A program made the position numbers. A stretch of DNA of 64,000 nt, from the NCBI GenBank assembly GCA_965215515.1, contig OZ244057.1, forward strand, positions 1,440,001-1,504,000, read 5' to 3'. Source of the DNA: Oligoflexales bacterium (GTDB taxonomy: Bacteria > Bdellovibrionota_B > Oligoflexia > Oligoflexales > JAPPIL01). Positions 6,001 through 9,000 of this stretch are shown piece after piece. Positions within the stretch are counted from its first letter, which is position 1; the number at the start of each line of letters is the position of its first letter.

Positions 6001-9000
6001 AAAGTAATTTTACGTTTCGGAGCGGGGGAAGTTACTGTTCTGAAAAAATATCTGGCACACTTCTTGAGGGAACTTGCCTGTAATCGTGTTTCCTAACTGC
6101 GGGAGGGCGTGTTGTGCCTGTTTACTGTCGTTTTCTCATCGTTTGTCTCCAGCTGCTGTTGCCTGTCTATGCTCAGAGCGACGACGAACCTCTTACTCTG
6201 ACGGACATAGCTGGTGCTGTTGTCGGCGACTCCACGCTGATTACGCTTGCTTTCAGCCGTGCTCCGCGTTGGCAGGAGGTTAACATGCAAAGTCGCAACA
6301 ATCTGCTGGAGTTGCAGTTACCCAACACCGTCGCACCCGCGGCAGGGAAGATTCAGGCGATCGACAGTCCTTTCGTGGCGAACCTATTGCCTTTGCAGCG
6401 CGATGCTCAGACGACCTCGCTGCGTGTTTTCGCAAGTACAGCGGGCAAACGTCTTCAGCAGGCGACGACCGTCGAGGTGGTGGGCAAACAAGTCATTATA
6501 TTGGTCGATCACCGCAAGCTATCGCCGCTGTCGCCTCCTCCGCGCACGGCAGCGCACGAGAACGGGTGGCTGGCAAAAACACAGCTAGCGGCGGTGGTGG
6601 TGGTCATCGTATTGACACTATTGCTGTGCCTGTTTGGGTTGCGGCGTTTGTTTCTCCAGCAAGCACAGCGTACCCACGACACGCAGAATCAGGTGTTGCG
6701 CCGTGTCGGGAAACTATCGCTATCGCCGCGGCAACATCTCGCACTGATCGAAGTGTATGGGCAACGTCTGTTGTTTGCTGTTTCTCGCCAGCGCACCGAA
6801 CTGCTGACCAGTACCAGCTTCAAATGCGTCGACGATAGGCAGAGGAGTACTATGCCCGCCGCGTTGTCGCAGCTCGATAACGATGCCTACCTCAACCAAA
6901 ACAGCCTCAGCGCTCAGAAATCGATACAGCGTAATCAGCATTACCGTGAGACGTTGCCACGCACTGCCGAACACCGCACCGCGGTGGCACAAAACGGGGT
7001 GAGGTGACCAAAAGGTGCGGCTTTCCGTTAATTTTACTTTAGTGGTAAGGGTAACGTGTTTATTTTATTTACAAAAATAATAAGTAAAAAAAATTTCTAA
7101 AGCTGGCGGTGTGAAGAGCCGACAGCACGGGTGGCCGTTGTTCTGCGCATGGCGGCTGGGCAGGTCGATCACACAGCGATGAGGGGCAAGTTGCGCGCAC
7201 TGGTAAAACGTTACAAACTCAACACGAGGGACATCAGCAACAAACTTCGTGACCAGCTCATCACGGACTATGCACCTCTGATCAGGTTTATCGCCCAGCG
7301 TATTGCGCTCAGACTACCGCCGAACGTCGATATCGACGATTTGGTCAGCTCGGGCATCATAGGTTTGATGGATGCCATCGATAAGTACGATCCTAGTCGG
7401 GACAACAAGTTTCGTACCTATGCGGAGTTTCGGATTCGGGGGGCGATCCTCGATGAGTTGCGTTCGCAAGACTGGGTGCCACGTTCGGTACGGGACAAGG
7501 CCAAGAGAATTGAGAGAACCAATGCTCGCTTGGAGCAAAAGCATGGTCGCTCTGTCAGTGAAAGGGAGATATCCAAAGATCTGGGGATGCCTTTGGACAG
7601 GTATCATCGGATGTTGGCAAGAGTGCGCACGGTAATGCTTGTGCCGATCGATGAGGTCACTGGTTCGGTGCAGCTCGATCAACACAATTTGTTGGAATAC
7701 TTGAATAGCGAAGCTCCCAACGACCCTTTCATCAATCTCAAAGTTAGAAAACTGAAAAGAACGCTCAAAGAAAATGTAGAAGCTTTGCCTGAAAAACAAA
7801 AGTTAGTGTTATCTTTATACTACTATGAAGAGTTAAATTTGAAAGAAATCGGCAAGATACTCAATGTCACGGAGTCGCGTGTCAGTCAAATTCACACTCA
7901 GGCTTTGACGCGCCTGCAATCGAAGCTCAACACAGCACTGTTGGAGTAGAGGAGGAGACGATGGAAAAATACACTCACAAGAGAATGGGCAACCAGTCGC
8001 CGAGACTAGAAAACGGCAAAGTGTTCGACGAGAGGGTGGTCAGGAGAACGGGCGAACGTCGTATTCCGCTCGAAATCAGCACTTACGGCCTCAACGATCA
8101 GGGGACGGTAAAATCACACAGCACTCACCTTAACACCCATGGCATTGAATTTTCTTCTCCCTCCGATTACGCACATGGCACGTTACTGCGAATAAATGTC
8201 TTCCTTCCTGATTTTTGGCAGAGAAAAAGAAAGCTGGTCAACTATCATCGGGTCGAGCCGCCAGAGCATTTTCGTATTCTCGCCAAAGTTGTCCGCAGCG
8301 ATGTCCAACTCCGCAAGAGCCGCAAAAAACTCGTGCTCGCTCAAACAGTTAACATGGACAAGATCGACGAGAAAGTTTTGTCTTCTTGGTTACTGGAAAG
8401 CAACAGCTAATTTATAGTACAGCTATGCGACTGCGAACCAGTTGTCCCCGTGTTTGATGTTGACCTCGAAGCGTACGGCCCCCTGCAAAGCATTCTCCAT
8501 GTTCTCCTTGATCAGGGTGGAGGCATGCGGCAGTTCGGCACGTGGGCATTCGAACAGCAGCTCGTCGTGAATCTGCAACAACATCGTCGTACGCAGCTGT
8601 GCTGCGTGCAGGGCGGTATCGACTTTCAACATGGCCAGCTTGATTAAGTCAGCTGCATAGCCTTGGATACAGGAATTGACTGCCGTGTTGCGAGCATGGG
8701 CGTAGGTCTGGGGGTTGCTCTCGTCGAGTCCCACGATCGTCCGCCGCCGTCCACAGGGGGTCTGACTATAGCCTCGCTTGGCGGCGAGCTCAACAAGCTC
8801 AGCGGTAAAACTTTTTACCTCTGGGTAGGCGGCGAAGTAACGGTCGATAAAACCCTGTGCCTCAGCCATCGACACCCCGACTGTCTTGGCGAACTTGCGT
8901 GCCCCCATACCGTAGACGATACCGAAGTTGATCGCCTTTGCCACCATGCGCTGTTCTCTGTTCACCTGTGCAAGGTCGACCGCAAAGATCTTCGCCGCGG

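Follow-up and report, generated by a model that had tools for sequence, protein, structure and literature searches.

The window, the whole stretch of 64,000 nucleotides analysed here (C1:1440001-1504000), belongs to an Oligoflexales genome that is assembled in 1 contig and is 93.9% complete; coordinates without the prefix C1 are positions within the window. On its forward strand lie a gene for a FliO-domain membrane protein of 297 amino acids (aa) (6114..7007), a sigma-28-type promoter (7098..7123), the sigma-28 gene fliA (7131..7949), and, directly downstream, a gene for a PilZ-domain protein of 149 aa (7961..8410). The reverse strand carries a gene for a giant modular type IV pilin of about 890 aa counted from its GTG (48309..50983), preceded by a sigma-28-type promoter with an A tract in its spacer (51027..51054). 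The fliA coordinates are those of the longest open reading frame (ORF), from GTG 7131. The true start is likely ATG 7179, which would give a protein of 256 aa; in the congener G002, stop codons lie upstream of the equivalent position. FliA scores 274.3 bits against TIGR02479 (FliA_WhiG; cut-off, 189.6; E = 7.9e-82) and 262.5 bits against NF005413 (cut-off, 201). At 256 to 272 aa, it contains the Pfam regions Sigma70_r2, r3, and r4, all above their cut-offs, and lacks region 1. Its best relatives of solved structure are WhiG (E = 4e-61) and Escherichia coli FliA (E = 9e-55), and it is 85 to 86% identical among congeners, with many invariant columns. The promoter before fliA consists of TAAA (7098-7101), a 16-nt spacer, and GCCGAC (7118-7123), with an A8 run immediately upstream. 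In both congeners, G002 and G001, its -35 and -10 blocks are kept whereas the spacer sequences have drifted apart, and a simple scan of positions 6950-7250 found no sigma-70-like promoter before fliA.

The product of 6114..7007 matches Pfam FliO with 34.9 bits (cut-off, 22) and falls below the NCBIfam FliO equivalog cut-off (36.2 versus 55.25 bits). By eye, it has a signal peptide, an AMIN-like periplasmic part, a transmembrane helix, and a FliO domain at residues 176-234. Judged by these profile matches, it is a FliO-domain protein and not a predicted member of the flagellar export gate, since it misses the NCBIfam cut-off and the genome has no FliP. Homologues directly upstream of fliA were found in family f1 only, with identities of 56%, 54%, and 31%. 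The survey's finding had described this gene as a FliO-like remnant, a term that does not suit it: the gene is intact and conserved at 54 to 56% identity in congeners, which indicates that it is not decaying. The PilZ assignment of the protein encoded downstream of fliA (PF07238, E = 0.032) is accompanied by PilZ matches at E ≤ 1 in 15 of 20 aligned homologues (best, 1.4e-6), and a homologue adjoins fliA in all fliA loci compared, which come from 19 relatives, flagellated or not.

A profile search of this 93.9% complete genome gave zero matches for FlhA/FHIPEP, Flagellin_N, Flg_bb_rod, and FliP. A weak FliG_C match was not counted as flagellar: the 330-aa protein concerned does not match NCBIfam FliG, and its sole domain is FliG_C/MgtE_N-like. 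These results agree with the survey: a bona fide sigma-28 remains, as does a shortened FlgM, although no gene for flagellar export or structure could be detected. The absence of FlhA is not confined to this family, as FlhA is missing from 10 of the 31 sampled genomes of the order. All 10 sampled flagellum-less genomes, which belong to four families, encode a FliA above the family cut-off.

The single FlgM match in the genome lies at C1:1181029-1181118 (profile positions 24-53), where the survey had placed it, in an ORF of 66 aa. The Pfam match (PF04316) reaches 40.2 bits against a cut-off of 25, covering profile positions 23-53 of 55 only, and the protein stays below the NCBIfam equivalog cut-off (TIGR03824, 33.8 versus 40.75 bits). 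The 66-aa form is 71 to 76% identical among three congeners and aligns only to the C-terminal helices of the 115- to 130-aa FlgMs of 12 flagellated relatives; the N-terminal part, which bears the export signal in flagellates, is absent. Up to 350 nt upstream of flgM, no sigma-28-type site was found in the three congeners, the best score being at most 4.1 bits compared with a training minimum of 16. FliA is kept without a detectable FlgM in 7 of the 10 sampled flagellum-less genomes, which indicates that FlgM is not required for the arrangement.

Sigma-28-type sites recur across the genome. The pattern TAAA-N14-16-GCCGAT has 24 intergenic matches, versus 0 to 3 for six control patterns, and the broader pattern TAAA-N14-16-G[ACT]CGAT[AGC][AGT] used in the survey, which had counted 32 matches versus 4 for the reversed control, gave 29 versus 4 with our own gene calls. 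When the A-tract copies were masked, TAAA-N15-16-GCCGA[TC] occurred at 20 intergenic positions against a mean of 2.35 expected from 60 Markov-1 simulations (simulated maximum, 6 at N15-16), an enrichment of about 8-fold, and no enrichment was found at N12-14 (4 versus 2.9) or N17-19 (4 versus 3.0). Spacing 14 occurs in none of the non-A-tract sites of this genome. Of the 26 non-A-tract intergenic sites with N15-16, 23 lie within 50 nt upstream of an independently called gene start on the same strand. G001 and G002 keep the motif at the orthologous position ahead of the genes for the FHA-HD protein, the M4 peptidase, and the TPR protein, and G003 keeps it ahead of the TPR gene, while the surrounding sequence diverges. 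Among the 25 candidate regulon sites, two probably arose by chance: one precedes the gene for ribosomal protein L22 at a distance of 239 nt, and the other is a thrice-repeated element by a methylase/Mrr gene. In E. coli, where variants with GCCGAC are also active, the sigma-28 consensus is TAAAGTTT-n11-GCCGATAA (PMC2859248). The motif of this genome matches that consensus, and the cognate form TAAA-N15-GCCGATAA is present and enriched (20 versus 2.35, N15-16). The data thus support a strong and spacing-specific enrichment of sigma-28-type promoters, which stand at the position expected relative to genes and are kept at orthologous loci, and from the match to the consensus we infer that transcription of these candidate promoters depends on sigma-28.

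The giant pilin encoded at 48309..50983 has an N_methyl match of 22.1 bits (cut-off, 21.2); its Pro/Thr linkers and Cys-rich modules come after a class III signal peptide (Gly-1, Glu+5, hydrophobic helix). The TTG start proposed earlier (51008, giving 899 aa) is less likely than the GTG 8 to 9 codons downstream, which gives a leader of 6 residues. The genome encodes about 12 intact giant-pilin paralogues sharing one common 5' region. These proteins are 590 to 1205 aa long and rich in Cys and Pro, and they have no Pfam domain beyond N_methyl. One prepilin peptidase (Peptidase_A24, 80.7 bits) and 8 T2SSE-family ATPases are encoded in the genome.

The promoter at 51027..51054 consists of CTAAAGTG, an A11 run (51036-51046), C, and GCCGATGA, with a TAAA-GCCGAT spacing of 15, at which it scores 23.5 bits on the position weight matrix. 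A simple scan of positions 50850-51250 found no sigma-70-like promoter near the pilin start. A sigma-54 promoter was considered for the pilin genes and rejected by eye, as no GC element stands at the proper distance from the conserved TGGCAA upstream of the -35 block. Twelve copies of the exact string CTAAAGTG-A(n)-CGCCGATG[AG] are present in the genome, with A11 in three copies, A10 in five, A9 in three, and A8 in one. The survey had assigned all 12 to pilin cassettes; this is correct for 11, which precede pilin N-termini, and not for the copy at C1:2088615, which precedes an unrelated signal-peptide ORF. Looser matching gave 24 A-tract promoters, whose runs between the two blocks range from A8 to A15. 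Giant type IV pilin paralogues follow 15 of these promoters, and most of the others precede lipoprotein-like genes. The blocks of the pilin promoters score 22 to 23.5 bits, and the median of the training set of non-pilin sites is 23.6. Long runs are concentrated in this promoter context, which holds 17 of the 24 A/T runs of at least 10 and only 7 of the 320 runs of 8 to 9 in this genome. Scanning of relatives with the pattern TAA-N2-6-A9-N1-7-CGA and a control pattern gave 21 versus 0 matches in this genome (G000), 55 rows (52 distinct) versus 0 in G001, 9 versus 3 in G002, and 25 versus 3 in G003. The A-tract class is therefore present in all four genomes of the family, which represent two genera (21, 52, 9, and 25 sites), and the pattern had 0 to 1 matches in each of four genomes of other families (G006, G012, G015, and G024).

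Considered together, FliA is on balance probably a working sigma-28 that has a non-flagellar regulon as well as a class of poly-A-spacer promoters switched by slippage. FliA would have outlived the flagellum by transcribing non-flagellar genes, its own gene included. Its generic-spacer regulon would comprise some 20 or more genes. Their products include two ankyrin-repeat proteins, M4 and trypsin-like proteases, proteins with TPR, VWA, and FHA/HD domains, a small pilin, and many others that match no Pfam family. The second promoter class would serve several genes for lipoprotein-like products besides those for the giant modular type IV pilins (about 12 intact copies). In this class, the poly-A run would fill the spacer between the -35 (CTAAAG) and -10 (GCCGATG) elements, and slipped-strand mispairing would shift the run by single bases, bringing the elements into or out of the 15- to 16-nt register, so that each surface-protein gene could be switched, or dialled, independently. 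That run length may affect expression is suggested by the preference of the non-A-tract sites for spacings of 15-16. As the survey had noted, only the A11 copies of the exact string reach spacing 15, and only the A11 and A12 copies fall within the genome's own 15-16 class; few copies would thus be in register in this assembly. As three pilin copies are simultaneously in register, expression would not be exclusive. The N-terminal half of FlgM is exported in flagellates. The 66-aa FlgM, by its alignment, would consist of the C-terminal sigma-binding helices only, and we infer that it binds FliA; it is probably an intracellular brake on FliA that is released otherwise than by export.

The commonest tract is A10 (spacing 14), found at 11 of 24 sites in this genome and 27 of 52 in G001. 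This mode fits promoters that are mostly off and one slip from on, and it equally fits a functional spacing of 14 for A-tract spacers, which could weaken the on/off reading. Accordingly, the promoters may be sigma-28 dependent while the A tract is a favoured spacer composition, acting as rigid or curved DNA or as a protein-binding site, and its length varies as near-neutral noise or as a weak rheostat, with no switching. The sharp A10 peak in both genomes, which looks like a selected functional length, is consistent with this explanation, as is an A7 run in the pilin leader region that is invariant in 13 aligned copies and A8 in one further copy, which indicates that modest runs can be stable. 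However, the other sigma-28-type sites are not enriched at spacings of 12 to 14, with no non-A-tract site at 14; tracts of up to A14 to A15 (spacing 19) at some genes are hard to see as functional; and a link with multigene families of surface proteins is the usual signature of contingency loci. This explanation is unlikely, but it carries real weight.

Slippage is suggested by the comparison of paralogues. A pair with 99.5% identity over 1000 nt is one A apart in tract length, which indicates that the tract is hypermutable, a pair with 98.0% identity over 840 nt is two apart, and in G001 paralogues carry A10 versus A12. Alternatively, such differences could be long-read homopolymer errors, with the real tracts all of one length (e.g., A11) and all promoters in register. 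The absolute run lengths rest on single assemblies, and the genomes richest in sites are assemblies of 1 to 7 contigs. In this assembly, 13 of the 410 homopolymers of at least 8 could mark frameshifts, a caveat that the survey had also given, and two of about 14 coding runs of at least 10 look frameshifted, which means that individual A10 or A11 calls may each be one base too long or too short. However, the other 397 runs of at least 8 leave frames intact, and the 13 suspect runs need -1 and +1 corrections about equally (7 versus 6). In addition, contigs from each of three public runs hold the 51036-51046 tract at the reference length, -1, and -2, with the paralogues mixed as the contigs break at the repeat boundary; the fragmented G003 (280 contigs) also varies, from A9 to A11; and the observed range of A8 to A15 far exceeds plus or minus one. 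Assembly error is thus an improbable source of the variation.

It is slightly more improbable still that the bipartite motif is read otherwise than by sigma-28, either by sigma-70, with TAAAGT as the -10 element and the A tract as initially transcribed sequence, or as a CGATG operator of another regulator. TAAAGT agrees with the sigma-70 -10 consensus at 4 of 6 positions, and TAAAGA is described as able to act as a weak cryptic sigma-70 -10 element (PMC2859248). However, the simple scans gave no sigma-70-like -35/-10 pair near the pilin start or before fliA, and the copies at C1:2088615 and C1:2171312 are homologous only from CTAAAG onward, so that no conserved upstream -35 element exists. Moreover, some 20 or more unrelated genes share both blocks at 15-16 spacing, the blocks agree with the sigma-28 consensus as published, and a bona fide sigma-28, which needs targets, is encoded in the genome. 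That fliA and flgM are functionless leftovers of a recent flagellar loss, as the disappearance of all other flagellar genes tested might suggest, is scarcely credible given that FliA exceeds its cut-off in 10 of 10 flagellum-less genomes and is 85 to 86% identical among congeners, that fliA has its own conserved promoter, and that the target motif is enriched and conserved.

The connection between sigma-28 and pilins may be older than the loss of the flagellum. Outside the family, 18 regions upstream of pilin genes in flagellum-less genomes include 6 with a sigma-28-like site, and 10 such regions in flagellated genomes include 2, which suggests that the link may predate flagellar loss. The survey's proposal that the flagellar sigma factor was rewired to pilin genes is doubtful for the same reason, since some pilin genes of flagellated relatives (2 of 10) also carry such sites.

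Several of these features have counterparts elsewhere. Legionella oakridgensis likewise keeps FliA and FlgM without flagella, both reported to be functional (review PMC5655016, citing Tlapak et al. 2017), and FliA must there be freed from FlgM in the absence of a basal body (PMC5655016). However, flgM is described as sigma-28 dependent in that species (PMC5655016), whereas here no sigma-28 site precedes flgM and FlgM is cut to 66 aa; the relevant text of the review mentions neither a pilin family nor a repeat-bearing promoter. In Actinomycetota, WhiG of Rubrobacter and Actinoplanes is a flagellum-detached sigma-28-family protein with type IV pilus targets, often including its own gene (PMC12871210), and WhiG is also the best match of solved structure for the FliA described here. 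WhiG2 belongs to another phylum and is held by RsiG and c-di-GMP rather than FlgM, and the text concerned describes no spacer homopolymer (PMC12871210). The sigma-28 of Chlamydia, also kept without flagella, drives a few non-flagellar late genes, e.g., hctB and tsp (PMC12282069); this regulon is very small (two genes by chromatin immunoprecipitation sequencing), with no pilins and no repeat switch in the account given there. Streptococcus sanguinis PilB is likewise a modular type IV pilin, with a large additional C-terminal module and a role in adhesion (bioRxiv 10.1101/2021.01.27.428410). Unlike PilB, the pilins described here are 590 to 1205 aa long, Cys- and Pro-rich, and present as about 12 intact paralogues.

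Promoter-repeat switches include those of Mycoplasma hyorhinis vlp (poly-A), meningococcal porA and opc, and Haemophilus hif, and such promoters are not known to be read by a sigma factor other than the housekeeping one. A poly-A tract also causes phase variation at the promoter of Neisseria nspA (PMC6389960), and GAA repeats set the expression of Mycoplasma gallisepticum vlhA (PMC6258824). The arrangement described here resembles these systems, as far as those accounts go, in having a slippage-prone repeat in or near the promoters of surface-protein genes, often in multigene families. As in contingency loci, whose repeats lie between or next to promoter elements, the tract lies between the -35 and -10 blocks, and its length varies faster than its flanks. 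However, the repeat lies in the spacer of promoters of an alternative, flagellar-type sigma factor, and there are 9 to 52 sites per genome in two genera. A full-text literature search combining FliA with phase-variable homopolymeric tracts returned, among the matches listed, Campylobacter papers that are unrelated by title. FliA and FlgM without flagella, sigma-28-controlled pili (WhiG), and promoter repeat switches are each known singly, and their combination is a new variation on them.

More tentatively, and with rather less than an even chance of being right, the narrow spacer tolerance of the orphaned sigma-28 may have been turned into a genome-wide stochastic switchboard of dozens of surface-protein genes, with the non-exported FlgM, and perhaps the PilZ protein, gating the whole set. 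Control may then have two layers, a global sigma/anti-sigma gate and per-gene repeat switches, an arrangement that to our knowledge is unreported for alternative sigma factors. The finding would extend repeat-driven phase variation from promoters of the housekeeping sigma factor to those of an alternative one, in a lineage that has received little study and in which such sites have multiplied to 9 to 52 per genome. The system is simple enough to be rebuilt in vitro or in E. coli, as it consists of a single sigma factor, a single anti-sigma factor, and promoters differing only in the number of As. It offers a concrete, testable answer to the question of why flagellar regulators survive the loss of the flagellum: the sigma factor would have a large set of non-flagellar targets, many of them surface proteins or proteins with protease, ankyrin-repeat, TPR, and VWA domains.

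The genome is a single contig of 2,180,710 bp (93.9% complete), and the window corresponds to C1:1440001-1504000; the offset of 1408001 used in the survey was wrong by 32,000. The sigma factor FliA is encoded at window positions 7131-7949 (plus strand) and scores 274.3 bits against TIGR02479 FliA_WhiG (cut-off, 189.6). Profile search detected sigma-70 regions 2, 3, and 4 in it, and its closest relatives of solved structure are Streptomyces WhiG (E value, 4e-61) and Escherichia coli FliA (9e-55). The preceding gene (6114-7007, plus strand) encodes a 297-aa FliO-domain membrane protein (Pfam, 34.9 bits versus a cut-off of 22) that falls below the NCBIfam FliO equivalog cut-off (36.2 versus 55.25 bits). 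The following gene (7961-8410, plus strand) encodes a 149-aa protein assigned to the PilZ family through its homologues: of 20 that were aligned, 15 matched PF07238 at E ≤ 1 (best, 1.4e-6). A PilZ gene adjoins fliA in all fliA loci fetched, which come from 19 relatives in the order, both with and without flagella (loci L003-L014 and L045-L053; 33 to 77% identity). The PilZ protein is a candidate second input to FliA control, and its gene may ancestrally have fed c-di-GMP signals into motility and been retained together with fliA. Elsewhere in the window, a 66-bp tandem repeat (3506-3804; 4.5 copies, 96% matching) lies within a minus-strand ORF (2227-3822).

Profile searches for FlhA/FHIPEP, flagellin N, rod proteins, and FliP, all positive in four flagellated control genomes, gave no matches in this genome, in agreement with the survey's finding that flagellar export and structural genes are absent while sigma-28 is kept. 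A 330-aa protein with a weak FliG_C/MgtE_N-like match (L002:1411-2403, minus strand; G000:C1:1779474-1780466; 28 bits versus 23.3) has no NCBIfam FliG match and was rejected as a flagellar gene. The shortened FlgM reported earlier was recovered as a 66-aa ORF at coordinates that fit contig C1, scoring 40.2 bits (Pfam cut-off, 25) over profile positions 23 to 53 only. Among 31 genomes of the order, this one included, FliA exceeded the family cut-off in 29, and FlhA was missing from 10, namely all four of family f1, to which this genome belongs, three of f4, two of f8, and one of f11. All 10 FlhA-negative genomes keep FliA, which indicates that sigma-28 retention after flagellar loss is recurrent in the order. 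FlgM has a full domain in all 21 FlhA-positive genomes (ORFs of about 115 to 130 aa); among the FlhA-negative genomes it was detected solely in the three members of this genus, each time in the 66-aa form (71 to 76% mutual identity), which indicates that retention of a shortened FlgM is peculiar to the genus. FliA occurs with no detected FlgM in the seven other flagellum-less genomes (G003, G006, G010, G021, G023, G024, and G030). The flgM gene (L001:1432-1632) starts 8 nt before the stop codon of an upstream beta-ketoacyl-synthase-like gene, with which it is probably cotranscribed; no promoter-like site of its own was found, and the weight matrix described below found no sigma-28 site within 350 nt upstream in any congener. 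The 66-aa FlgM would presumably still bind FliA, with relief by means other than export.

A codon-usage ORF caller predicted 1,869 genes (88% coding). With these calls, the promoter-pattern enrichment noted in the survey was reproduced (29 intergenic matches versus 4 for the reversed control), and the stricter TAAA-N14-16-GCCGAT gave 24 intergenic matches versus 0 to 3 across six control patterns. With paralogous A-tract copies (described below) masked, TAAA-N15-16-GCCGA[TC] occurred 20 times, compared with a mean of 2.35 (maximum, 6) when the 259 kb of intergenic DNA was simulated 60 times with a first-order Markov model, whereas spacings of N12-14 and N17-19 gave four sites each (simulated means, 2.9 and 3.0). 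The excess is confined to spacings 15 and 16, and 23 of the 26 intergenic N15-16 sites lie ≤50 nt upstream of a same-strand gene start. The motif agrees with the published E. coli sigma-28 consensus TAAAGTTT-n11-GCCGATAA, for which the aer promoter provides an active GCCGAC variant (PMC2859248). Upstream of fliA itself, this genome and both congeners (G001 and G002) share a -35 block (CTAAAG or CTAAGG followed by CT) and a -10 block of AGCCGA(C/T), while the spacer has diverged. Of three other regulon genes compared, those for the FHA-HD protein and the M4 peptidase keep the site in both congeners, and that for a TPR protein keeps it in G001 and G003 (second genus of the family), with an ACCGAT variant in G002 (by eye). 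Products behind these generic sites include M4 and trypsin-like peptidases, two ankyrin-repeat, two TPR, VWA, and FHA/HD_5 proteins, a 157-aa pilin, FliA itself, and many proteins without a Pfam family. A sigma-28 regulon is well supported, and FliA is the factor that would read its sites. The two ankyrin-repeat proteins (L070, G000:C1:1237896-1238438; L072, G000:C1:1376079-1377554), together with the 2.18-Mb genome, suggest that the bacterium lives in association with a eukaryotic host. Two sites, one preceding L22 and one next to a methylase, appear to be chance matches. Three copies of a 30-nt element (G000:C1:157850, 277184, and 1162111) happen to fit the pattern with a 16-nt spacer, one of them directly before a fused N6/N4 DNA methylase and Mrr-type endonuclease gene; the element is probably a repeat rather than a promoter.

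In a second class of sites, the A-tract class, a poly-A run fills the spacer, so that A10 gives 14 nt and A11 gives 15 nt between TAAA and GCCGAT. The exact string described previously at all pilin cassettes does occur 12 times, but not always at pilins, one copy driving an unrelated gene. A looser form (T[AT]A[AG], 1 to 5 nt, A8-15, 1 to 4 nt, CGAT) identified 24 sites, 15 of them before pilin N termini and the other nine mostly before ORFs with signal-peptide or lipobox-like beginnings (by eye). Genome-wide, 17 of 24 A/T runs of at least 10 lie in this promoter context, versus 7 of 320 runs of 8 or 9. On a weight matrix trained on 21 non-A-tract sites (median, 23.6 bits; minimum, 16), the pilin promoters at their own spacing score 22 to 23.5 bits, which indicates that their blocks are as good as any and that only spacing varies. 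Spacings of 12, 13, 14, 15, 16, and 19 occur at 2, 5, 11, 3, 1, and 2 sites, respectively, and the spacing-15 sites are exactly the three A11 pilin copies singled out earlier; an A11 pilin promoter lies in the window at 51027-51054 (minus strand), before its gene at 48309-50983 (minus strand). Homology among pilin copies begins about 60 to 75 nt before the -35 block, but two copies, one of them driving the unrelated gene, are homologous only from CTAAAG onward, which indicates that the promoter module also stands alone.

The survey probably placed the pilin start (TTG) too far upstream, and a GTG 8 to 9 codons further downstream is favored; it yields a 6-residue leader, is used by a divergent paralogue, and leaves intact the copy whose leader region carries A8. 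Six-residue leaders are typical of type IVa pilins. With this start, the genome encodes 12 intact giant pilins (about 580 to 1,205 aa) and three truncated copies, together with one prepilin peptidase and eight T2SSE-family ATPases. The N-methylation motif is the sole Pfam match of the giant pilins, which resemble the "modular pilins" described in Streptococcus sanguinis. One truncation (a 153-aa copy) falls together with a poly-C/G run within the gene that is 11 long, versus 10 in the intact paralogue (G000:C1:1600130 and C1:1873530, outside the window); the difference may be either an assembly error or a further switch, acting on translation. No homopolymer in the genome is longer than an intergenic run of 23 C, also outside the window (G000:C1:377355).

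Assembly error also bears on the A-tracts. Only 13 of 410 homopolymers of at least 8 are placed where gaining or losing a single base would join open frames (-1 in seven cases, +1 in six), which indicates that gross homopolymer error is limited, although runs of at least 10 may be more error-prone. Contigs from three public runs each hold the pilin tract at the reference length, -1, and -2; they mix paralogues because they break at the repeat boundary, and carry no single-locus information. In the two most similar paralogue pairs, the tract differs by one A (99.5% identity over 1,000 nt) and by two (98.0% over 840 nt), showing that it is hypervariable.

The proposed mechanism is that run length would set expression, with spacing 15 to 16 as the active register. 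Such a switch is plausible, though not proven. Several observations speak against a simple on/off reading: A10 (spacing 14) is the most frequent run length in G000 and G001 alike, three pilin copies are in register simultaneously, flgM has no nearby sigma-28 site in any congener, and seven flagellum-less genomes do without FlgM. Published work describes FliA and FlgM as the sole survivors of the flagellar regulon in Legionella oakridgensis and relatives (PMC5655016) and reports that WhiG, a sigma-28-family member, controls type IV pili in Rubrobacter as well as Actinoplanes (PMC12871210). Chlamydia sigma-28 serves two late genes (PMC12282069), and promoter repeats tune surface proteins in Neisseria (PMC6389960) and Mycoplasma (PMC6258824). 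A full-text search on FliA and phase-variable homopolymeric tracts gave, among the matches listed, only Campylobacter papers unrelated by title, and none found for Oligoflexales and pilin concerned sigma-28 or A-tract pilin promoters, judging by title. Since the components are known separately in other bacteria, we rate the finding in this genome as a variation on known kinds.

The A-tract class extends to the relatives. By eye, A9 to A12 separates CTAA(A/T)G-like and (G/A)(C/T)CGA-like blocks in 15 of 25 pilin-type upstream regions of G001 to G003, including some that precede ordinary pilins (about 200 aa); near-identical paralogues there carry A10 versus A12. Genome-wide, TAA-N2-6-A9-N1-7-CGA (reversed controls in parentheses) gave 21 matches (0) in G000, 55 rows or 52 distinct sites (0) in G001, 9 (3) in G002, and 25 (3) in G003, versus 1 (2) in G006 (f4), 0 (0) in G012 (f10), 0 (3) in G015 (f13), and 1 (1) in G024 (f11). 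The 52 sites of G001, counted by hand, comprise 14 A9, 27 A10, 5 A11, 1 A12, 2 A13, 2 A14, and 1 A15. These counts indicate that the A-tract spacer is an invention of family f1, shared by two genera, and not an oddity of a single assembly.

In the survey, the sigma factor seemed rewired to pilin and other surface-protein genes. Outside f1, T[AC]A[AG]-N15-16-[GT]CCGA[TA] occurs in 8 of 28 pilin-type upstream regions: 6 among the 18 from flagellum-less genomes and 2 among the 10 from flagellated ones. These eight make up over half of the 15 such sites within the 179 kb scanned. They hint that sigma-28 already served pilin genes before flagellar loss, but with only two flagellated cases, one by the relaxed pattern alone, they fall short of a result; the present state may be the remnant of a wider sigma-28 regulon.
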